A stretch of 64,000 bases of DNA from assembly GCF_057098645.1 (NCBI RefSeq), contig NZ_CM169472.1; one strand, written 5' to 3'. Positions 6,858 to 45,219 of this stretch are shown here, in pieces; the first letter of the stretch is position 1; the number at the start of each line of letters is the position of its first letter. Position numbers and translations under genes: made by a program. The notes under the pieces are model-generated. The model was not told the DNA's origin. It saw only the letters and a program-made list of their open reading frames with translations, and made no database searches.

Positions 6858-8120
6858 ATGGCACTGACTGACGCAAAAATCCGGGCTGCAAAGCCCACTG
6901 ACAAGGCTTATAAACTCACTGACGGGGCCGGCATGTTCCTGCTGGTTCATCCTAATGGTTCCCGTTACTGGCGTCTCCGTTATCGTATTCTGGGTAAGGA
7001 GAAAACCCTGGCACTTGGTGTGTATCCCGAAGTTTCTCTCTCCGAAGCTCGTACAAAACGGGATGAGGCCCGAAAACTGATTTCGGAGGGGGTTGACCCT
7101 TGCGAACAGAAAAGAGCTAAAAAAGTAGTCCCTGATTTACAACTCTCTTTTGAACATATTGCACGACGCTGGCATGCCAGTAATAAACAATGGGCACAAT
7201 CACACAGCGATAAAGTACTCAAAAGCCTCGAGACACACGTTTTCCCCTTTATCGGCAACCGGGATATCACAACACTCAGTACCCCGGAGCTGCTTATCCC
7301 TGTTCGTGCTGCAGAAGCTAAACAAATTTATGAAATCGCCAGTCGTCTGCAGCAAAGAATATCTGCTGTAATGCGTTATGCCGTACAGTCTGGCATCATC
7401 AGATATAACCCGGCTCTGGATATGGCTGGTGCATTGACCACGGTAAAACGCCAGCATCGCCCTGCTCTGGATCTTTCACGCCTGCCTGAACTTCTGTCGC
7501 GTATTGACGGTTATAAAGGCCAGCCTGTCACCCGACTGGCAGTTATGCTGAATTTACTGGTTTTTATTCGTTCCAGTGAACTCAGATATGCCCGCTGGTC
7601 TGAAATTGATATTGACAATGCCATGTGGACTATTCCAGCCGAACGCGAACCTCTGCCAGGCGTAAAATTTTCATACCGGGGCTCCAAGATGCGAACACCA
7701 CATCTTGTGCCACTCAGCCAACAGGCTGTAGCCATACTGGCAGAACTTCAGACATGGGCAGGTGAAAATGGTCTGATCTTTACGGGAGCACATGACCCAC
7801 GTAAACCAATCAGTGAAAACACCGTAAATAAAGCCCTGAGGGTTATGGGGTATGACACAACCCAGGATGTCTGTGGTCATGGATTCCGGGCGATGGCATG
7901 TAGTGCATTAATAGAATCAGGTTTGTGGTCCCGCGATGCTGTAGAACGCCAGATGAGCCATCAGGAGCGTAATGGTGTACGTGCTGCGTATATCCATAAA
8001 GCCGAACATCTGGAAGAACGTCGACTTATGCTACAGTGGTGGGCAGATTTTCTGGATGCGAACAGAGAACAATGTATCAGCCCGTTTGAATATGCAAAGA
8101 TTAACAATCCATTAAAATAG
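6858..8120 (+). CDS. P4-type tyrosine integrase (phage/island integrase)
   Basis: 420 aa ORF MALTDAKIRAAKPTDKAYKLTDGAGMFLLVHPNGSRYWRLRYRILGKEKTLALGVYPEVSLSEAR... typical N-terminus of P4-like integrases; sits immediately 3' of a tRNA gene. Confidence 0.9.
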   Translation: MALTDAKIRAAKPTDKAYKLTDGAGMFLLVHPNGSRYWRLRYRILGKEKTLALGVYPEVSLSEARTKRDEARKLISEGVDPCEQKRAKKVVPDLQLSFEHIARRWHASNKQWAQSHSDKVLKSLETHVFPFIGNRDITTLSTPELLIPVRAAEAKQIYEIASRLQQRISAVMRYAVQSGIIRYNPALDMAGALTTVKRQHRPALDLSRLPELLSRIDGYKGQPVTRLAVMLNLLVFIRSSELRYARWSEIDIDNAMWTIPAEREPLPGVKFSYRGSKMRTPHLVPLSQQAVAILAELQTWAGENGLIFTGAHDPRKPISENTVNKALRVMGYDTTQDVCGHGFRAMACSALIESGLWSRDAVERQMSHQERNGVRAAYIHKAEHLEERRLMLQWWADFLDANREQCISPFEYAKINNPLK

Positions 8121-8127
8121 TAATCAT

Positions 8128-8157
8128 CCCGGGCAGCCAGCCCGGGAATTATTTTCT
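8128..8157 (+). terminator. Terminator-like hairpin after the integrase gene
   Basis: cccgggcagccagcccggg perfect inverted repeat followed by a T-rich run. Confidence 0.45.
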
Positions 8158-8305
8158 GAATATTTTTCTTTGTGAGTAACTGGAAAAAGGATAGCGAAGT
8201 AAATTACTTTAATGAATTATTCCAGGGGCTCATTAAAGTTCTTTCGTAATACTTTGTAGTCAAACACGTTATGGCTGGCATCAAAAACCAGGTAATGACT
8301 CCAAC

Positions 8306-8794
8306 TTATTGATAGTGTTTTATGTTCAGATAATGCCCGATGACCTTGTCATGCAGCTCCACCGATTTTGAGAACGACAGTGACTTCCGTCCCAGCCTTG
8401 CCAGATGTTGTCTCAGATTATGTCGCTCAATGCGCTGAGTGTAACGCTTGCTGATAACGTGCAGCTTTCCCTTCAGGCGTGATTCATACAGCGGCCAGCC
8501 ATCCGTCATCTATACCACGACCTCAAAGGCCGACAGCAGGCTCAGAATACGCTCCAGTGTGGCCAGAGTGCAGACGTGCGCCACAACCGTCCTCCGTATC
8601 CTGTCATACGCGTAAAACAGCCAGCGCTGACGTGATTTAGCACCGACGTAGCCCCACTGTTCGTCCATTTCAGCGCAGACAATCACATCACTGCCCGGTT
8701 GTATGCGCGAGGTTACCGACTGCGGCCTGAGTTTTTTAAGTGACGTAAAACCGTGTTGAGGCCAACGCCCATAATGCGTGCACTGGCGCGACAT
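8306..8794 (-). pseudogene. insB: IS1 insB interrupted by an in-frame TAG
   Basis: Two in-frame ORFs (8510-8794 and 8306-8509) separated by TAG at 8510-8512; the reference has a Trp codon at this position as I recall (...VVIWMTDGW vs ...VVV*MTDGW here). Confidence 0.75.
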
Positions 8795-8988
8795 CCGACG
8801 CCATTCATGGCCATATCAATGATTTTCTGGTGCTTACCGGGCTGAAAGGCGGTGTAAGTGAACTGTAGTTGCCATGTTTTACGGCAATGAGAGCAGAGAT
8901 AGCGCTGATGTCCGGCAGTGCTTTTGCCGTTACGCACCACGCCTTCAGTAGCGGAGCAGGAAGGACATCTGATGGAAATGGAAGCCAC
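8713..8988 (-). CDS. insA: IS1 InsA
   Basis: 91 aa [47 protein letters not shown]... zinc-finger InsA. Confidence 0.9.
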
Positions 8989-9214
8989 GCAAGCACCTTA
9001 AAATCACCATCATACACTAAATCAGTAAGTTGGCAGCATTACCGAAATCCCCATCCTTTAGGGCAGTGAGGATGTCAATAATAGCAGACCACATCATGAG
9101 TCATTTTGACCGACACATGCCAGAAGCAGAGGCTCCATCCCATTTTATACCTACCCTATAACACTTAGAAAAACAACATGTTAAAAATGTCTATTGGAAA
9201 CAATTTTATTTCCA

Positions 9215-9240
9215 ATTGTAATGATAACCATTCTCATATT
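9215..9240 (+). promoter_or_regulatory. Fur box in the fecIR promoter region
   Basis: tgtaatgataaccattctcatattaat resembles the Fur consensus gataatgataatcattatc and lies about 45 bp upstream of the fecI start. Confidence 0.5.
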
Positions 9241-9279
9241 AATATGGCTACGTGATAATTAACTTTTGATGCACTCCGC

Positions 9280-9797
9280 ATGTCTGACCGCGCCACTACC
9301 ACTGCTTCCTTAACGTTCGAGTCGCTTTATGGCACACATCACGGCTGGTTGAAAAGCTGGCTGACGCGCAAACTCCAGTCTGCTTTTGATGCAGATGACA
9401 TTGCCCAGGACACTTTTTTGCGGGTAATGGTCAGCGAAACGCTCTCGACGATCCGCGATCCTCGCTCCTTCCTGTGCACTATCGCCAAACGCGTGATGGT
9501 GGACCTGTTTCGCCGAAACGCGCTGGAAAAAGCGTATCTGGAGATGCTGGCGCTTATGCCGGAGGGGGGAGCGCCTTCACCTGAGGAACGCGAAAGCCAA
9601 CTCGAGACCCTACAACTCCTCGACAGCATGCTGGACGGGCTAAACGGCAAAACACGTGAAGCGTTTCTGCTTTCGCAACTGGATGGTCTGACATACAGCG
9701 AGATTGCGCACAAACTCGGTGTTTCCATCAGCTCCGTGAAAAAATACGTGGCGAAAGCCGTCGAGCACTGCCTGCTGTTCCGTCTGGAGTATGGGTT

Positions 9798-9801
<4 letters not shown>
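9280..9801 (+). CDS. fecI: ECF sigma factor FecI
   Basis: 173 aa, sigma-70 region 2 and region 4 features; first gene of the fec locus. Confidence 0.92.
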
Positions 9802-13162
<3,361 letters not shown>

Positions 13163-13206
13163 TGTGTTAACGCCCGGCTTGCCGGGCTTTTAGCTGGAAT
13201 GTGATT

Positions 13207-14109
13207 ATGTTGGCATTTATCCGTTTTCTTTTTGCAGGCCTGCTGCTGGTGATCAGCCACGCCTTTGCCGCCACGGTTCAGGACGAACACGGCACGTTTA
13301 CACTCGAAAAAACGCCACAACGGATTGTGGTGCTGGAACTCTCGTTCGCCGATGCGCTGGCCGCCGTGGACGTCAGCCCGATCGGTATTGCCGACGATAA
13401 CGATGCAAAACGCATCCTGCCCGAAGTGCGTGCGCACCTGAAACCGTGGCAGTCCGTCGGAACGCGCGCGCAGCCGAGCCTGGAAGCCATTGCCGCTCTG
13501 AAACCAGACCTGATCATTGCCGACAGCAGTCGCCATGCGGGGGTTTACATCGCCTTGCAGCAAATCGCGCCGGTACTGCTGCTTAAGTCCCGCAACGAAA
13601 CCTACGCTGAAAATTTGCAATCTGCGGCTATCATCGGCGAAATGGTGGGTAAAAAGCGAGAGATGCAGGCACGTCTGGAACAACATAAAGAGAGGATGGC
13701 GCAGTGGGCCAGCCAGCTTCCCAAAGGGACACGCGTGGCCTTTGGCACATCACGCGAACAGCAATTCAACCTGCATACTCAGGAGACCTGGACCGGCAGC
13801 GTGCTGGCCTCTCTGGGGCTGAACGTTCCCGCTGCGATGGCGGGTGCGTCCATGCCGTCCATCGGCCTGGAGCAACTGCTGGCGGTCAATCCTGCCTGGC
13901 TGCTGGTTGCCCACTATCGCGAAGAGAGCATTGTTAAACGCTGGCAACAAGATCCGCTCTGGCAGATGTTAACCGCCGCGCAGAAGCAGCAGGTTGCTTC
14001 GGTCGACAGTAACACCTGGGCGCGGATGCGCGGTATTTTTGCTGCAGAGCGTATTGCCGCTGACACGGTAAAAATCTTCCACCATCAGCCGCTTACCGTT
14101 GTGAAATGA
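13207..14109 (+). CDS. fecB: Periplasmic ferric citrate binding protein FecB
   Basis: 300 aa from the ATG at 13207 (MLAFIRFLFAGLLLV...), signal peptide. Confidence 0.9.
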   Translation: MLAFIRFLFAGLLLVISHAFAATVQDEHGTFTLEKTPQRIVVLELSFADALAAVDVSPIGIADDNDAKRILPEVRAHLKPWQSVGTRAQPSLEAIAALKPDLIIADSSRHAGVYIALQQIAPVLLLKSRNETYAENLQSAAIIGEMVGKKREMQARLEQHKERMAQWASQLPKGTRVAFGTSREQQFNLHTQETWTGSVLASLGLNVPAAMAGASMPSIGLEQLLAVNPAWLLVAHYREESIVKRWQQDPLWQMLTAAQKQQVASVDSNTWARMRGIFAAERIAADTVKIFHHQPLTVVK

Positions 14110-15104
14110 CCGCGATAAAACACCCGGTGCTGCTGTGGGGGCTTCCCGTTGCAGCACTTATTATTATTTTCTGGCTGAGTCTGTTTTGCTACTCGGCCAT
14201 TCCTGTTTCCGGAGCAGATGCAACCCGCGCCCTGCTGCCTGGACACACGCCAACGCTACCAGAAGCGCTGGTGCAAAACCTTCGTTTGCCACGAAGCCTC
14301 GTCGCCGTTCTGATCGGCGCAAGCCTGGCGCTCGCGGGCACGCTGCTGCAAACCCTGACCCACAACCCAATGGCCTCTCCTTCACTGCTCGGCATTAACA
14401 GCGGCGCGGCGCTGGCTATGGCGCTTACCAGCGCGCTGAGTCCGACGCCGATTGCAGGCTATTCTCTGTCGTTCATCGCGGCATGCGGGGGCGGCGTGAG
14501 CTGGCTGCTGGTCATGACCGCAGGAGGCGGATTTCGTCATACCCATGACAGAAACAAACTGATCCTCGCGGGTATCGCGCTGTCGGCCTTTTGTATGGGC
14601 CTTACCCGCATCACCCTGCTGCTGGCCGAAGATCATGCTTACGGCATCTTTTACTGGCTGGCAGGCGGAGTGTCCCACGCCCGCTGGCAGGATGTCTGGC
14701 AGCTCTTGCCGGTGGTGGTCACTGCAGTCCCTGTCGTGTTGCTGCTGGCGAATCAACTGAACCTGCTCAACCTCAGCGACAGCACCGCCCATACGCTGGG
14801 AGTGAACCTGACGAGGCTACGTTTGGTCATCAATATGTTAGTGCTGCTTCTGGTTGGTGCGTGCGTTAGCGTGGCAGGTCCGGTGGCGTTTATCGGTCTG
14901 CTGGTGCCACATCTGGCGCGCTTCTGGGCAGGCTTCGATCAGCGCAACGTACTGCCAGTGAGCATGCTGCTGGGGGCCACGCTGATGCTGCTGGCAGATG
15001 TACTCGCACGCGCGCTGGCCTTCCCCGGAGATCTGCCCGCAGGCGCAGTGCTGGCGCTGATTGGCAGCCCTTGCTTTGTCTGGCTTGTGAGGAGGCGAGG
15101 ATGA
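14106..15104 (+). CDS. fecC: Ferric citrate ABC transporter permease FecC
   Basis: 332 aa FecCD-family permease, multiple TM helices. Confidence 0.9.
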   Translation: MTAIKHPVLLWGLPVAALIIIFWLSLFCYSAIPVSGADATRALLPGHTPTLPEALVQNLRLPRSLVAVLIGASLALAGTLLQTLTHNPMASPSLLGINSGAALAMALTSALSPTPIAGYSLSFIAACGGGVSWLLVMTAGGGFRHTHDRNKLILAGIALSAFCMGLTRITLLLAEDHAYGIFYWLAGGVSHARWQDVWQLLPVVVTAVPVVLLLANQLNLLNLSDSTAHTLGVNLTRLRLVINMLVLLLVGACVSVAGPVAFIGLLVPHLARFWAGFDQRNVLPVSMLLGATLMLLADVLARALAFPGDLPAGAVLALIGSPCFVWLVRRRG

Positions 15105-37205: not shown

Positions 37206-37905
37206 GTGAGATGTGATCTAATTGATTGTGCTAGCAATTTCAAGGATATCACCACTATGCCTGCACGTTCATTATGCCAAAAATTCCTTAAAAACATACT
37301 GGCCACTTTGCATTTCTACCATCAAAAATCACTGATTGACGCAACAAATGCTGTAATAAATGGCGCTTCCCTCACGCTTAGCAGCATCGGGCGTCATTTA
37401 ACCAGACAGCATTAGTTAAAAACAAGATAAAGCGGGTGGATTGACCGTTGGGGAATTCTCAACTGAAAAATGATCTTCCCACCATTTTTCAGTTGGTTAC
37501 TCAAAAAAATACGCTGAGAATGTTCGTGTTGTTGTACGCCTTCGCCAGCAGTGGCAGGATGTTCAGGAGGAGTGTCGGCAGGCAGAGGTCGGATCAGGAG
37601 AGCGGCTGCGTAATGCCCTGCTGAATGTGGATTATACCACCAGTTTTGAACTGCCTTTTCGTCTGCTTTTAACCCGCACGTCACAGCTGATTGCTGTGCT
37701 TTGGGAAGAATGGGATATCAGCCAGAAAAATGTGGTGTTTAACGATAAACGCTTTGGTTGCGTGTATAGCCTGAAGGCCAGTCTTTCCGGCGTGCGGATA
37801 CATTCCGGTATCATCTGTCTCACCGTATTCGCCGGATGGTTGGGAATGAAATACATCATCGCCTTGGCAGCAGATTGCCCGGAAAGTGAAAGCGCTCCGT
37901 GAATG
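37206..37905 (+). pseudogene. IS4-family (IS10-like) transposase remnant, frameshifted and 3'-truncated
   Basis: Fragments ...SLTLSSIGRHLTRQH*, ...VKNKIKRVD*, ...IAVLWEEWDISQKN... in different frames resemble the IS10 transposase N-terminal region (TLTLTELGRNLPTKA..., NIKRIDRLLGN..., IVLVDWSDIREQKR as I recall it). Confidence 0.45.
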
Positions 37906-38082
37906 ACTTAAGTATGCGCTAGAGGAGGGATTACTGGTGACCGCACTGGACGGTCTGTTCTGGTCTGGTAGTCAGCGTATTGCGGAAGATATTCTGTGTC
38001 GTTACGGGGAAGTCATCTTCACAGGGATCTTCAGTCAGTTAGTATTACCGACATTCATTCACCAACTTACCGGAGATAATCG

Positions 38083-38412
38083 ATGTCAAAACCCCGATGG
38101 ACCATTGAACAGAAAAGGCAGCACGTTGCTGCCTGGCGCGCCAGTGGTCTTACACGTCAGCAATACTGTGAACTCAACGATATTCCCTTCACATCACTTC
38201 GCGAATGGCCGCAGGATGTCGCAAAAGCTGAACGCCGGGCAAATGAACCGACCGTTCTTCCCGTTCATATTGCGCCACCACTGCATGCTGATGTACCACA
38301 GCCCGTCACGAATGAGCCAGTCACGCTCTTCCTTCCCGGCGGAGTACGGATGTGCTGTCAGCCGTCACAACTTACCGATGTCTTCAGGGCGCTCAAATAT
38401 GCTCAGTCCTGA
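38083..38412 (+). CDS. IS66-family accessory protein TnpA (Orf1)
   Basis: 109 aa MSKPRWTIEQKRQHVAAWRASGLTRQQYCELNDIPFTSLREW... Confidence 0.75.
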   Translation: MSKPRWTIEQKRQHVAAWRASGLTRQQYCELNDIPFTSLREWPQDVAKAERRANEPTVLPVHIAPPLHADVPQPVTNEPVTLFLPGGVRMCCQPSQLTDVFRALKYAQS

Positions 38413-38791
38413 TAATGTCTTCATCGCGATTAAACCTGTTGACATGCGCCGGGGCATCGACACACTGACGCAGTATATACAGGATGAACTCCGGTCGACA
38501 TGGCATGAGGGAGCCGCCTTCGTCTTTGTTAACAAAGACCGTTCGCGTATCAAAGTTCTCCGGTGGGATAAACACGGGGTGTGGTTGTGTACCCGCCGTC
38601 TTCACAAAGGCAGCTTCCGCTGGCCACGTGCAAATGATGCTGCCTGGCACCTCACTCCCGACGAGTTTAACTGGCTGATTGCCGGTGTTGACTGGCAGCA
38701 GGTTAAGGGACATGGCCTGACGAAATGGGTCTGGCAAAATGAACCTGAACTGCGCCCTGAAAACACGCAAAACACACTGCTAACTCACTGA
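38399..38791 (+). CDS. IS66-family TnpB (IS66 Orf2-like)
   Basis: About 130 aa ...FIAIKPVDMRRGIDTLTQYIQDELRSTWHEGAAFVFVNKDRSRIKVLRWDKHGVWLCTRRLHKGSFRWP...; start overlaps the TnpA stop. Confidence 0.75.
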   Translation: MLSPDNVFIAIKPVDMRRGIDTLTQYIQDELRSTWHEGAAFVFVNKDRSRIKVLRWDKHGVWLCTRRLHKGSFRWPRANDAAWHLTPDEFNWLIAGVDWQQVKGHGLTKWVWQNEPELRPENTQNTLLTH

Positions 38792-38797
38792 AAAATA

Positions 38798-39830
38798 ATG
38801 AATATTCGTATCCGGAGTGGTATGCTCCCCTGTATGGATATCTCCGCTCTCAACACCACGAATGACATCGAAAAACTGCGTGCTATGGCACTTGCCATGG
38901 TACAAAAAGTCATGTCGGAGAATGCCGAAAAAGAGCGGGAATTACTGGAGAAAAGCCGGCGCATCCAGCTTCTGGAAGAAATGCTGAAACTGGTTCGTCA
39001 ACAGCGCTTCGGTAAAAAATGTGAAACGCTGGCTGGTATGCAACGCTCCCTGTTCGAAGAGGATGTTGATGTCGATATCGCCGAGCTCACCGCACATCTG
39101 GATAAACTGCTCCCGCAATCCCCTGAAGAAGACGAAAAAGCGTCCCGTTCACGCCCGATACGCAAACCCTTACCGGCTCATCTTCCACGGGTGGAAAAAA
39201 TTATCCAGCCGGACACTGACCATTGCCCTGAATGTGACGAGCCGCTGCACTATATCCGTGATGCGGTGAGTGAAAAGCTGGAGTATATTCCCGCTCACTT
39301 TGTGGTGAACTGTTATGTCCGTCCGCAATACAGTTGTCCCTGTTGCCAGAAGGTGTTCAGCGGTGAAATGCCGGCACATATCCTCCCGAAAAGTGCCGTT
39401 GAGCCATCAGTCATCGCACAGGTGATCATCAATAAATACGGTGAGCACCTGCCTCTGTATCGCCAGCAACAGGTCTTTGCCCGTTCAGATGTCGGACTGC
39501 CCGTCAGTTCGATGGCTGACATGGTTGGCGCGGCAGGGGCCGCATTATCCCCCCTCGCGGCGTTACTCCATCGCGAATTGATAAGCCGTCCGGTGGTGCA
39601 TGCAGATGAGACTACCCTGAAGATCCTGAACACGAAGAAAGGCGGTAAATCCTGCTCCGGTTATCTGTGGGCATACGTCAGTGGAGAAAGGACGGGACCG
39701 TCAGTTGTGTGCTTCGACTGCCGGACCGGACGTAGCCATGAGTATCCTGAAAACTGGCTTCAGGGCTGGGGCGGGACGCTGGTTGTCGACGGACATAAAG
39801 CTTACCGGACTCTGGCAAACAAAGTGCCGG
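38798..39830 (+). pseudogene. IS66-family transposase TnpC, N-terminal about 340 aa only (zinc finger + first two DDE motifs), 3' end replaced
   Basis: RFGKK, PLPAHLPR, CPECDEPL...CPCCQK, HLPLYRQ, VHADETT, GYLWAYV and VVDGHKAY motifs in IS66 order; similarity ends near aa 340; the conserved C-terminal GRKNW region is absent. Confidence 0.7.
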
Positions 39831-40441
39831 AGCTGGCGAATATCATCGGTCATCACGCGGGTATTGATGACAATACAGCGGCAAAAGCCATTGCCCATGC
39901 CATTCTCGGTGGTGTGACAGCAGCCCTTCAGGGCAACAGTGCGGCAGCAGGCGCAATTGGTGCGGGTACTGGTGAAGTGATCTCGTCAGCCATTGCGAAA
40001 AGCCTCTACCCGGACGTAGATCCGTCGAAACTGACAGAAGATCAGAAGCAAACCGTAAGCACGCTGGCAACGCTGTCAGCGGGTATGGCTGGCGGCATTG
40101 CCAGTGGCGATGTGGCTGGCACAGCTGCAGGGGCTGGTGTTGGGAAGAACATTGCTGAGAATAACTTGGTTGGTGGCACAGAGTCCGAGCAGAGCAAAGC
40201 TGCTCAGACGCATGGCGCAGATGTACTTTCCTGTAACGATGCTCCAGGCGGTGAAGCCTGTAAGCGAGGAGAAGCAGTCAATAAAGCGTATGCCGGAGCG
40301 TTGGCCACTGGTAGTGTAGCTCTCTTACCTGGCGGTGCTCAGGCCATGTGGGCTCTTGGCACAGGTGCAAATGCAGGAATTGGTTACATGGTAGATAGTT
40401 CAGTTGATCCTGAAAATGCAATCATTGCAGGATGGGTCTGA
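39831..40441 (+). other. Polymorphic-toxin-like fragment in frame with the truncated tnpC: Gly/Ala-rich pretoxin region with ENN motif (KNIAENN) plus about 90 aa glycine-zipper-like C-terminal piece; stop supplied by the IS629 terminal TGA
   Basis: ...SLYPDVDPSKLTEDQKQTVSTLATLSAGMAGGIASGDVAGTAAGAGVGKNIAENNLVGG... resembles CdiA pretoxin (PT-VENN) regions; the ORF ends exactly at the IS629 boundary (40439-40441). Confidence 0.45.
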
Positions 40442-40480
40442 ACCGCCCCGGGTTTCCTGGAGAGTGTTTTATCTGTGAAC

Positions 40481-41371
40481 TCAGGCTGCCAGATCATCGT
40501 TTCCGATGGAAGCATAATAAGCTTTTTCTGCTTCTGCCGGAGGAGTATGGCCCAGCCTTTCCAGCAATCGTCGATTGTTATACCAGTCCACCCACGTGAG
40601 TGTGGCCAGTTCCACTTCTGCACGGTTTTTCCAGCTCTTACGGTGTATTACCTCCGCTTTGTAAAGACCATTGATGCTCTCCGCCATCGCGTTGTCATAC
40701 GAGTCGCCTGTACTTCCTGTTGATGCCAGTAATCCGGCTTCCTTAAGCCGCTGTGTGTAGGCCAGCGATACATACTGAGAACCTTTATCACTGTGATGGA
40801 CCGTGCCGGACGGTCGACGGGCCCATAACGCCTGCTCCAGTGCATCCAGCACGAATGTCGTCTCCATGGACGATGAGACCCGCCACCCCACAATGTATCC
40901 GGCAAACACATCAATGATGAACGCCACATAGACGAAGCCCTGCCATGTGCTGACGTAAGTAAAATCAGCCACCCACAGCTGGTCAGGTCGTTCTGCCACG
41001 AACTGACGGTTTACGCGGTCGCCTGCGGCAACGGCTTTCCGGCTGATGGTCGTACGGACCTTTTTACCCCGGAGAACACCGGCAAGTCCCATAACCGCCA
41101 TGAGACGTGCCACAGTGCATCTGGCCACTCTGATACCTTCCCGTAACAACTGACGCCAGACTTTACGCACACCGTATACCTTGTGATTTTCATCGTATAC
41201 GCGCTGTATCTCTTTCTTCAGCCAGTCATCGCGCTGCGCACGGGCACTGCGTTTATCCGGATGATGTCGCTGTTGCTGACAGTGGTAATACGTTGACGGG
41301 GCAATATGCAGTTCGCTGCATAGCGGTCCGACCCCGTACTGCTCACGCAGCTTATCCAGCAGTGGCATCAT
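40481..41371 (-). CDS. IS629 OrfB
   Basis: Identical 296 aa translation to 18174-19064. Confidence 0.9.
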
Positions 41372-41694
41372 TTTTTCCAGAGGCGGTCGAACTCCGCCTT
41401 CGCAAAATAAGCGGAAGCCTGGCGAAGGATATCGTTACTGCGGCGCAGTTCACGATTTTCACGCTCCAGCTCTTTCAGACGCTGACGTTCAGCGGTGGTG
41501 AGCCCTCCATCACCGCCCCCGGTATCCCGCTCATGCTGGCGAACCCAGACACGCAGAGTCTCCGGCGTACAGCCAATCTTTGGAGCAATGGAACAAATTG
41601 TCGCCCATTGTGAGTCATATTCGCCCTGACTTTCCAGAACCATACGGACTGCCCGTTGACGGACTTCAGGGGAAAAACGAGTATTTTTAGTCAT
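41368..41694 (-). CDS. IS629 OrfA
   Basis: Identical 108 aa translation to 17851-18177. Confidence 0.9.
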
Positions 41695-41745
41695 CCTGTT
41701 TACCTCTTTCTCAGGAAGTTTAGTCTCCAGGATTCCCGGGGCGGT

Positions 41746-42156
41746 TCAATCAGTGTTTACTTCCCTGGCCTCGCTACCATTGGTATAGCTACTACAGTCT
41801 TCATCACTGCCACGCTCATTCTCACAGACATGTTTCTCGACCTTTCCAAGATATCTGACGCCTTTTCGCGGAATGGTTTTAATTAGAGAACTCGACAAAC
41901 CAGCGATGTCTAATGCCTTTCTAAGCATGTAAATCTGCCCATAATAACTGCTGTCGCTTACCGAACCTTTCTGCTCCCGCCAAACCTCATTGATAATATG
42001 TTGCTTATCGGATTCTCCCTGTAGTAAAAGGAGTAAAAATCGATAGCCGTTTTCAGACAGATTAATTACATTGCCTGTACTGGTGGTGATACGTCGAGAC
42101 GCTGGGTAAAACTTAACTCCCTGCCCTAAAGAAAAATAAAAACGGTCATCGCTCAT
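41746..42156 (-). pseudogene. ToxR/CadC-like winged-helix (OmpR/PhoB-type) transcriptional regulator, N-terminal 136 aa; 3' end truncated by IS629
   Basis: ...NGYRFLLLLLQGESDKQHIINEVWREQKGSVSDSSYYGQIYMLRKALD...IKTIPRKGVRYLG... winged-helix pattern; the stop codon is the IS629 terminal TGA. Confidence 0.55.
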
Positions 42157-43500
42157 AAGTACCGAACCCTGTTTTCTTCTTCACATGACTACTCATTACA
42201 ACTTTGTATGAAGTAAGATGCAAAATCATATTGTTTACATTAAGTTAAGCAATTATACCGTTTAAACAAAGACAATACGTCTCTTTATTTCTCATAAAAC
42301 CCCAATCCCTTACAGGGCTTATTGAAAATTTAAAAATCACAAATTTCTCAATACTAAAAATGAGATCACATAAGAAATCAAAAAACCTTCTCATCTATTT
42401 TAAGTTTTCCCAACGTAAAATAAGAGCTTTTATTAATAACTGAACCACTTTACTGTTCTATTTGTTCAGGTATTGTATTACGGTGTGCTGAGATCCATAG
42501 GTGCATCCCTGTATCCCGCGATGAGACTAAAATAGTCGTGATTTAAGCTCGTATCAGATTCTTAGTGAATACCACATTTGTTATAATTAAGTGAAAAGAT
42601 ACATTGCTGATTTACATTTTTTGGTTTACAAAATGTCATCACTTACAGAGTTATCGCTGACATATACCTTTAATCTCTTAATCCTTTCGTGTTATTGCAA
42701 TACAACCATCCATAAAGCAGGCTATTTTTAGCAGGAAATACTCAGGTGTCAACATTCGAACCCCAACCCTGAAATATTCATATAAATTAATGATTTTTTC
42801 ATTTATTCACACCTAATCAAAGTATTCAAATTCAGATGATTTTTCTGCTCAACAGACACAAACAGGCAATAATACTCTCCAAAGCGAACAATATTTGGCA
42901 TTACGATTTAATGCTTCATAATCACCAAATCATTTAACTATAAATTTTCTTATTTTTAACGAAATGGTTGGTGTTTTTTTGGAATTAAAAACATACATAA
43001 TATTAACATCTACCGACATTTCACTTTCCGAAAGACGAATGATTTCGAATCCTCATCTACGTTCTCCCATCCCAAATATCTTTATTAATAGGCAGTACGA
43101 ACACTGTTATAGCAAGATTACCTTATTAACCTAATGGAATCCTTTATGTAACAAGTGAAAATAAATTCCTTAAAATTGATTCTCAGCAAATCTTAAAAGT
43201 TCTCATTATTCTGCAAAATCAGCTTTGCGAATAATCTTATGTTTTTGGGAATTTTGATCTGCTCATTGCTCTCGTGAAAAATACAAACAAGAGAAAAAAC
43301 GCCATTCGTCATGAAAAGAACAGACGTAGCAATGTAATAACATACTAAAATTGATCTCATGAAAGTGGGTGCTTTATAACCAGCACAGAAGCTCAGACGT
43401 ATAAATATTAAACAATTTGCATTGTAAAACGGAGACTATGTATTAAGAAGCCAATCGTAAAAACGGTTCCCTGGCGAGATAAACGACAAACAAATGGAAA

Positions 43501-43527
43501 GCCGGATGATATTTACCTTCATCCGGC
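43501..43527 (-). terminator. Hairpin downstream of glcA (terminator candidate)
   Basis: gccggatga...tcatccggc inverted repeat immediately 3' of the glcA stop; weak T-tract. Confidence 0.35.
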
Positions 43528-43536
43528 ATTATTGAC

Positions 43537-45219
43537 TTACGAAACTAACATCCCGGTAAACACATACGCCTGCAACAGCGTGATAATGCCGATAACGCTG
43601 GCAAAAATCAGACTGTGCTTCACGGTGTAGCGGAACAGTTCAGATTCTCGGCCCACCATGCCCGTCGCGGCGCAGGCCACGGCGATAGATTGCGGGGAGA
43701 TCATCTTGCCAGTTACGCCGCCGCTGGTATTTGCTGCCACCAGCAGAGTGTCAGAGACGTTGATTTGCTGCGCCGTGGTCGATTGCAGTGAACCAAACAG
43801 GGCGTTTGAAGAAGTGTCCGAGCCGGTAAGGAATACCCCCAGCCAGCCGAGGAACGGTGAGAAGAACGGGAACATCACGCCTGTACCTGCCAGTACCAGC
43901 GCCAGCGTGGTGGACATGCCGGAATAGTTGGTGACGAAGGCGAACGCCAGCACCATGCCAATCGACAATATCGGCCACTTCAGACTAATTAGCGTTTCGG
44001 CAAAGACGCCAATCCCTTTCTTGATGCCCACGCCGAGGATGAAGATAGAGATAATCGCCGCAATAAAAATAGCGGTGCCGCCAGCCGAGAGGGGGTCGAA
44101 TTTAAACACCGCATCCATTGGCGTTGGTTGGGCGACAATGGGTGCCGCTTTCAACACTTGTTGATGCAAATGAGGGATCTGGAAATTAATCACCAGTGAA
44201 TAAAACACGCCGCCCGGAGCAAATAACGCTTTAAACGGCTTCATGGTCCAGATGGTGACCAGCACCGTTAAGATTAAAAACGGTGACCACGCTCGAATGA
44301 TTTGCCCCAGACTATATTCTGAAGGCACTGGACCGCCAGAAGATGGCTTATTTACCACCATCGCACCTGCGGATTGTCCCATGCTGATTGCCGTTTCGGT
44401 ATTTTTCGGCCGCCAGACTTTAAGGAATAAAGCGAGTGAGACGATACTCACCAGCGCCGAAGTAATATCCGGCAGTTCCGGACCAATATAGTTAGAGGTA
44501 AAGAACTGAGTGACAGCGAAGCTTCCCCCTGCAGCCAGCGCCGCTGGCCACGTCTCTTTCACCCCTTTCCAGCCGTCCATCATTGCTACCAGCCAGAACG
44601 GCACAAGAACCGACAGGAACGGTAACTGACGTCCTGCCATAGCACCAATGTGGAACGGATCGATTCCCGTTACCTGACCGGCGACCAGAATCGGCACGCC
44701 CAACGCACCAAACGCCACCGGCGCAGTATTGGCAATCAGACACAGCCCCGCCGCGTATAACGGTTTGAAGCCCAGGCCCACCAGCAGCGCACCAGTAATC
44801 GCCACCGGGGCACCAAAGCCAGCCGCCCCTTCCAGCAGCGCGCCAAAGGAGAAACCAATCAGTAACACCTGCAAACGCTGATCGTCAGTGATGGAGATAA
44901 CCGAGCTGCGGATAATATCGAACTGCCCGCTGGCAACGGTTAATTTATAGAGGAACACCGCCGCGACAATAATCCACGCTATTGGCCATAATCCATAAAT
45001 AAAGCCATAGCCCGCAGCAGAAAATGCCATATCAATCGGCATTTTAAAGACGAATATCGCAATCAGGAGAGATAATATAAGGGTTATTGCTCCGGCAACA
45101 TGTCCTTTCAGACGTAATACCGCGAGTGCAACGAAGAAGAATATTATCGGGATCAGGGCGACCAGAGCGGATAGCCCCAGTCCTCCCATCGGCATATACA
45201 TTTGGGTCCAGGTAACCAT
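43537..45219 (-). CDS. glcA: Glycolate/lactate permease GlcA
   Basis: 560 aa LctP-family permease; position downstream of glcB. Confidence 0.9.

Follow-up and report, generated by a model that had tools for sequence, protein, structure and literature searches.

The locus described here lies in a 64-kb stretch of E. coli DNA that we analyzed as a whole (contig NZ_CM169472.1, hereafter the window). On the minus strand, a short gene coding for a winged-helix DNA-binding domain runs into one end of an IS629 element. Upstream of the gene, an AT-rich region separates it from glcA, and, on the other side of the IS629 element, the DNA is unrelated to the locus (Table 1).

Table 1. Features of the truncated regulator locus and of its surroundings in the window.
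Feature	Coordinates	Strand	Remarks
Unrelated DNA on the other side of IS629 (IS66, ISEc60, and CdiA-CT 'VENN' debris)	37251..40438		3.2 kb
IS629 (IS3 family)	40439..41748	-	1310 bp; orfA 41368-41694 and orfB 40481-41371, both on the minus strand
TGA stop codon (TCA on the plus strand)	41746..41748	-	Made of the three bases that open the terminal inverted repeat of IS629, TGAACCGCCCCGGGAATCC...
Truncated pypB-like gene	41746..42156	-	ATG start, 136 native codons (41749-42156), then the TGA stop
AT-rich non-coding region upstream of the regulator gene, up to the glcA stop	42157..43536		27-39% GC
glcA (glycolate permease)	43537..45219	-	Conserved chromosomal flank fixing the position of the locus

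The truncated gene and its junction with IS629

The original prediction described a 136-aa open reading frame (ORF) carrying a DNA-binding domain of the ToxR/CadC type, and, on this point, the ORF itself and the Pfam, family-profile, and structure matches all agree. The product consists of a complete ToxR-type winged-helix domain (about residues 6 to 110) followed by 26 residues of linker, and it lacks the C-terminal 65 residues of the intact protein, transmembrane (TM) anchor included. The Pfam domain Trans_reg_C matches residues 29-99 with an E-value of 2.4e-5 and a score of 24.8 bits, i.e., just under the gathering cut-off of 26.2 bits. No hydrophobic segment was detected in the 136-aa product (its best 19-residue Kyte-Doolittle mean is 0.78), which is thus devoid of the single C-terminal TM helix found in PypB-type regulators. 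Comparison with the intact gene indicates that this helix is an ancestral feature, lost in the window copy.

The limits of the truncation could be defined to the nucleotide. Using megablast against 5426 complete E. coli genomes, we observed that the homology between the window and the intact gene of RM12761 begins exactly at position 41749 and is of 100% onward, and that the window product coincides at every position (136/136) with the first 136 residues of the E. coli ortholog (201 aa). Hence, the stop codon comes from IS629 and the product does not contain a single foreign residue. Where the window ORF has its TGA, the intact gene has GCA (Ala137), and the 195 nt missing from its 3' end begin with GCACATATTTC…, coding AHISGNDNS…. 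That IS629 truncates the gene and that the end of the element donates the stop had both been put forward from the start, and both statements are confirmed. Indeed, the homology to the intact ortholog stops at the IS boundary, and the TGA sits inside the terminal inverted repeat. The same observations bear on the opposite reading, in which 136 aa would be the natural full length of the protein and the IS would simply lie beside it. Apart from the existence of an intact ORF, nothing further speaks for it. Against it, the orthologs are 201 aa long in E. coli and mostly 175-215 aa among the relatives listed from elsewhere, the intact-gene homology is cut at the IS boundary in a mid-codon series, and the stop belongs to the inverted repeat of the IS. 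We consider this reading as refuted, with virtually no chance of being correct.

The element has the attributes of IS629, i.e., a length of about 1310 bp, inverted-repeat termini that both read TGAACCGCCCCGGG, and two overlapping transposase ORFs, and it matches at 99.2% the copies annotated as 'IS3-like element IS629 family'. No target-site duplication was found around it, the left flank being GTC and the right flank ATC, and this absence, combined with the unrelated left flank, argues for a rearrangement after the insertion. The DNA on the left (37251-40438) stands where related genomes have the last 195 nt (3') of the regulator gene and the flp-tad genes and, in other E. coli genomes, it is part of a distinct island. 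The window and RM12761 are collinear over the fec and gentisate regions, but 4.6 kb of RM12761 are missing from the window, namely the regulator 3' 195 nt, flp, tadV, rcpC, rcpA, one small gene, and tadZ in truncated form. The IS629 copy of the window is 100% identical to the RM12761 copy bordering the tad remnant, but inverted.

The arrangement of this region points to a deletion or an inversion, both of which would be compatible with the 64 kb seen. We propose that IS629 would have inserted after codon 136 of the regulator gene, and that an IS-mediated deletion, or a recombination between IS629 copies, would then have joined the gene to unrelated DNA. By this way, the membrane anchor and, within the window, the whole presumptive target operon would have been removed. 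If an inversion between IS629 copies took place, the 3' gene fragment and a tad remnant could be located elsewhere in the chromosome. A second IS629 copy is present at positions 17797-19106 (1310 bp), 100% identical both to the copy adjoining the regulator gene and to the one at the tad remnant of RM12761, and it represents a plausible recombination partner for the former.

To the left of this element, a 547-aa ORF of the plus strand (38798-40441) fuses the N-terminal part of an IS66-family TnpC to a CdiA-like C-terminal region, in which a pre-toxin motif of the VENN type, …GKNIAENNLVGG…, was identified. This ORF ends with a TGA (40439-40441) provided by the second terminus of IS629, and truncated genes thus receive in-frame stops from both ends of the element. 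Disruption by IS629 is commonplace, and the present case resembles the disruptions and deletions of EHEC by its 1310-bp IS3-family element with TGAACCGCCCCGGG termini, its multiple identical copies, and its reshuffled flanks; nothing is unusual except the in-frame stop supplied at both IS ends.

A junction located at a repeated element could also result from the assembly, the gene and IS629 being brought together in a chimera. The window contains at least two IS629 copies, the flanks of the copy in question are unrelated to each other, and the same junction was found in none of the 5426 complete RefSeq E. coli genomes, the allele being found in draft assemblies only. On the other hand, the exact 136-aa product is present on about 24-30 contigs (NCBI, ENA, and Logan), with about 24 independent draft assemblies, and the five contigs inspected (from NCBI, SRR, ERR, and DRR data sets) all end inside IS629 and display a base-identical gene-IS629 junction. 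The recurrence of the same junction in about 24 independent drafts designates a lineage allele and not an artefact, and a chimera is therefore very unlikely. It is the right-hand junction that the independent contigs confirm, the connection to the left flank through the IS (1310 bp) being seen in the window alone. The truncated allele is fixed in one lineage.

The intact ortholog and the PypB family

A search for the full-length ortholog in related genomes, as the original prediction advised, was successful. In E. coli O145:H28 RM12761, the intact gene (606 nt) encodes a protein of 201 aa (WP_001278643 as annotated there), which we modeled with AlphaFold2 from a 27-sequence alignment. In this model, the winged-helix domain (residues 6-110) has a pLDDT above 90 and is followed by a disordered stretch (about residues 111-162) inside an acidic linker, which contains 14 Asp/Glu versus 5 Lys/Arg over residues 111-168. 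The C-terminal helix (about residues 169-199) also has a pLDDT above 90, with a Kyte-Doolittle mean of 2.72, and the tail after the TM helix consists of four residues only (NQDK). The 65 residues lost in the window correspond to the distal linker, a conserved juxtamembrane motif (EWYxSxxW), the single TM helix, and the four-residue tail. The top Foldseek matches were ToxR (8b4d, 33% identity, TM-score of 0.79) and then the DNA-binding domain of E. coli CadC (5ju7), and the family profile, when searched against the PDB, retrieved the V. cholerae ToxR DNA-binding domain as sole match (E-value of 2e-11).

The relatives of this protein comprise 60 close ones and about 196 detected by profile, with about 120 across Enterobacterales, and Trans_reg_C matches 21 of 27 family members. 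All 58 full-length relatives possess a strongly hydrophobic C-terminal helix followed by 0-10 residues, and a folded periplasmic or extracytoplasmic sensor domain after the TM helix is absent in these 58 proteins. The membrane helix (columns of residues 171-197) is more conserved than the linker and displays the motif …AVCWLTTL…. Across 27 diverse members, C184, W185, and L189 of the helix are invariant.

The comparison with ToxR of V. cholerae and CadC of E. coli gives a contrasted picture. A ToxR-type winged helix, an N-in bitopic topology, and a flexible linker ahead of the TM segment are found on both sides. However, ToxR and CadC have folded periplasmic sensor domains, whereas the proteins of the PypB family end 0-10 residues past the TM helix and are much shorter overall (about 200 aa). 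The name 'ToxR/CadC-like regulator', used in the original prediction, suits the DNA-binding domain and the bitopic topology, as judged from the model, but does not suit the class with a periplasmic sensor domain. Since such a domain was tested for and is absent, the intact protein is to be placed, on its sequence, outside the sensor-bearing ToxR/CadC class. The claim that the truncation had removed a sensor half is likewise not sustained: the intact 201-aa protein has no periplasmic domain and extends four residues past its helix. The original prediction was to be abandoned if full-length orthologs turned out to be about 136 aa long, with neither TM nor periplasmic domain; they are not of this length and a TM helix is present, and only the lack of a periplasmic domain was observed.

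In Y. enterocolitica, a tad-linked protein of 199 aa, which we take to be PypB (from its gene position, Table 1 of a review, and what is reported of pypB), is homologous to the intact E. coli ortholog over its full length, with 41% identity over 200 columns and an E-value of 1e-47, and the family profile retrieves it with an E-value of 4.5e-60. The two proteins are of nearly the same size (199 versus 201 aa), and the intact E. coli ortholog presents the same succession of winged helix, linker, and C-terminal TM. As with PypB, the gene is the first one ahead of flp-tadV-rcpCA-tadZABC in intact E. coli loci. Unlike PypB, the window copy ends after residue 136, without TM and without operon. PypB is reportedly a ToxR-like transmembrane activator of the tad operon of Y. 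enterocolitica, which specifies a type IVb/IVc pilus (Schilling et al. 2010, J Bacteriol 192:3809), and pypB is said to head this operon and to be co-transcribed with the tad genes. In Y. enterocolitica, PypB also affects hreP, and extra targets are therefore possible. Table 1 of the review (PMC10269533) gives PypB as a transmembrane transcription regulator that, in Y. enterocolitica and Y. ruckeri, controls the expression of the Flp type IVb pilin.

By sequence and synteny, the window copy can be assigned to the PypB family, and it is because it is a truncated remnant that it is found without TM anchor and without tad linkage. We thus describe a hitherto undescribed E. coli ortholog of the PypB family, here in the form of a pseudogene. 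Other ToxR-like regulators of E. coli, i.e., GrvA, YqeI, and the HilA-like YgeH, were considered as candidates, the sole NCBIfam match being YgeH with 22.9 bits for a cut-off of 800. They were set aside and the tad-linked family was consequently preferred.

The Tad/Flp pilus island and its probable decay in E. coli

The regulator gene is directly upstream of, and co-oriented with, flp-tadV-rcpCA-tadZABC in the eight species out of eight that we checked (E. coli, Pectobacterium, Y. ruckeri, Y. enterocolitica, Hafnia, Serratia rubidaea, Mixta, and Erwinia). The shared order is regulator, flp, A24 peptidase, CpaB/RcpC, secretin, TadZ, TadA, and TadB/C. The 2010 PypB paper reportedly presented the PypB-tad linkage as confined to Yersinia and, if so, the linkage in eight species renders this statement outdated. 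Indeed, both the family and its association with tad genes reach Escherichia, Pectobacterium, Hafnia, Serratia, Mixta, and Erwinia, the linkage being general in Enterobacterales and not Yersinia-specific. By analogy with PypB, the intact E. coli protein is most likely a membrane-tethered activator of the downstream flp-tad operon. The full-length protein would activate flp-tad transcription from the membrane, as PypB reportedly does in Y. enterocolitica. In four taxa (E. coli, Pectobacterium, Y. ruckeri, and Y. enterocolitica), neither a ToxR-box (TNAAA-N5-TNAAA) nor a shared motif was detected between the regulator gene and flp or in the 400 bp upstream of the regulator gene, these regions being simply AT-rich.

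Another type of regulator is encoded next to a tad cluster in Enterobacterales. In P. atrosepticum SCRI1043, ECA0785/ECA0786, located beside flp/tad, influence the transcription of flp/tad positively (Nykyri et al. 2013, PMC3767616). They share this position with the PypB-type genes but consist of a REC-OmpR response regulator and a histidine kinase, and not of a membrane-anchored single protein, and they constitute an unrelated solution. This Pectobacterium tad regulator was considered as a possible identity for our gene and rejected, being a classical two-component system and a different protein. In Pectobacterium CP024780 (8001-16588), we observed a tad cluster headed by a membrane-anchored PypB-type regulator. 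With ECA0785/6 in SCRI1043 and a PypB-type regulator in CP024780, the genus possesses two distinct regulatory solutions for Tad pili.

In E. coli, the Tad/Flp island is rare, any part of it being carried by 36-42 of the 5426 complete genomes (about 0.7%). A complete Tad/Flp type IVc island is present in PapRG-06-5 (locus 7333-19030), flanked by glcA and, toward pheV, by a fimbrial/T6SS region. It encodes, in this order, the regulator, flp, the A24 prepilin peptidase, CpaB/RcpC, the secretin, a small protein, TadZ, TadA/CpaF, TadB, TadC, a TPR protein, TadE, TadF, and TadG. PapRG-06-5 was verified to carry the entire cluster, and, in several other isolates that are not EHEC, the portion examined (through tadZ) is covered. 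Our literature search on the E. coli or O145 tad locus returned nothing relevant.

The region between the regulator gene and glcA (42157-43536) is about 1.4 kb long, which is unusual for E. coli intergenic DNA, and contains no ORF above 56 aa. A search of Rfam with a permissive E-value over positions 41700-43600 gave zero matches. Any match to this region was obtained in 42 of the 5426 complete E. coli genomes, and the upstream stretch, up to about 43225-43428, is present only in genomes with the tad island. The homologous upstream regions are also long and fairly AT-rich, with 24-27% GC over 400 bp in Yersinia and 39% GC in Pectobacterium. In the window, this region is best read as the boundary of the island together with the promoter region of the regulator, and presumably holds the regulator's own promoter; from its composition only, it is also likely bound by H-NS. 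It had been suggested that the truncation may alter the expression of whatever this AT-rich upstream DNA controls. This suggestion is not retained, since the gene heads a co-oriented tad operon in eight species and the intact loci thus place the likely target, i.e., the flp-tad operon, downstream. In the 64-kb window, neither flp nor any tad gene gave a match, and the truncated gene is therefore not followed by such an operon.

Among the complete genomes carrying the locus (n = 36), the full regulator gene is present in 32 and other truncations are found in 4. In CUWW06 (19026-20408), an IS1 lies after nt 456 of the regulator gene, and a 159-nt piece of its 3' end is retained between two copies of IS1. 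The breakpoint at nt 456 is common to CUWW06, XJ34, and XJ6-3, and, in GDSC2227PM, about 130 nt of the regulator gene are left. The cases of CUWW06, XJ34, and XJ6-3 represent a recurrent IS inactivation of the locus. Moreover, elements of the IS3 family, IS629 included, already interrupt the tad operon in O145 EHEC relatives, which fits a progressive decay of the locus. In the window, this decay has gone one step further, in a locus that had probably lost its function before.

Fate of the truncated product

Taken together, the ORF, which corresponds to the 5' two-thirds of the gene, is most likely an inert, IS629-truncated remnant of a PypB-type Tad-pilus regulator, and the event is a common form of decay, driven by insertion sequences, of an accessory adhesin locus in an E. 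coli background rich in IS629. If expressed from its native AT-rich promoter, the remnant would give at most a soluble, untethered DNA-binding domain, whose cognate operon is missing from the vicinity. Such a soluble 136-aa product is possible, the native start, the upstream region, and the complete DNA-binding domain (aa 6-110) being kept, and, from there, one could imagine that the truncation makes a functional soluble regulator, constitutive or dominant-negative on other promoters. It is known, for CadC, that an overproduced cytoplasmic fragment can activate cadBA constitutively, and the allele is unchanged in about 24 assemblies, two points in favor of a functional product. However, a neutral pseudogene is expected to persist in a clone anyway, the window lacks the presumptive target operon, which was already broken in O145 relatives, and few parts of the family are as conserved as the TM helix, which is hence arguably needed. 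According to the title of Crawford et al. 2003 (in PMC10269533), activation by ToxR requires that its winged-helix domain be tethered to the membrane. We hold a functional soluble regulator to be improbable. An altered expression is also less likely than the plain loss of the whole, already decaying locus, because the tad operon is absent from the window.

An inert remnant matters little alone, as one more IS629 pseudogenisation in an IS-rich E. coli lineage. Its annotation is nonetheless to be corrected, from a sensor-deleted ToxR to a remnant of a Tad-pilus regulator. As a by-product, the analysis revealed, beside glcA, a rare Tad/Flp island of E. coli headed by a PypB-type regulator.

The conserved membrane anchor of the PypB family, devoid of any further domain and bearing an invariant Cys-Trp, constitutes an unexplained and testable feature. 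Since the helix, the sole element facing away from the cytoplasm, is nearly invariant and no periplasmic domain follows it, a sensing inside the membrane could apply: the helix itself might sense something there, e.g., the Flp prepilin load or a component of the Tad machine, and the family would then be more than a plain anchored activator. We regard this as a speculative and improbable proposal. If it were true, it would amount to a feedback on pilin level, analogous to PilS-PilA, and the allele cut by IS629 would be a natural 'sensor-less' soluble variant, which might keep an orphan regulatory activity.
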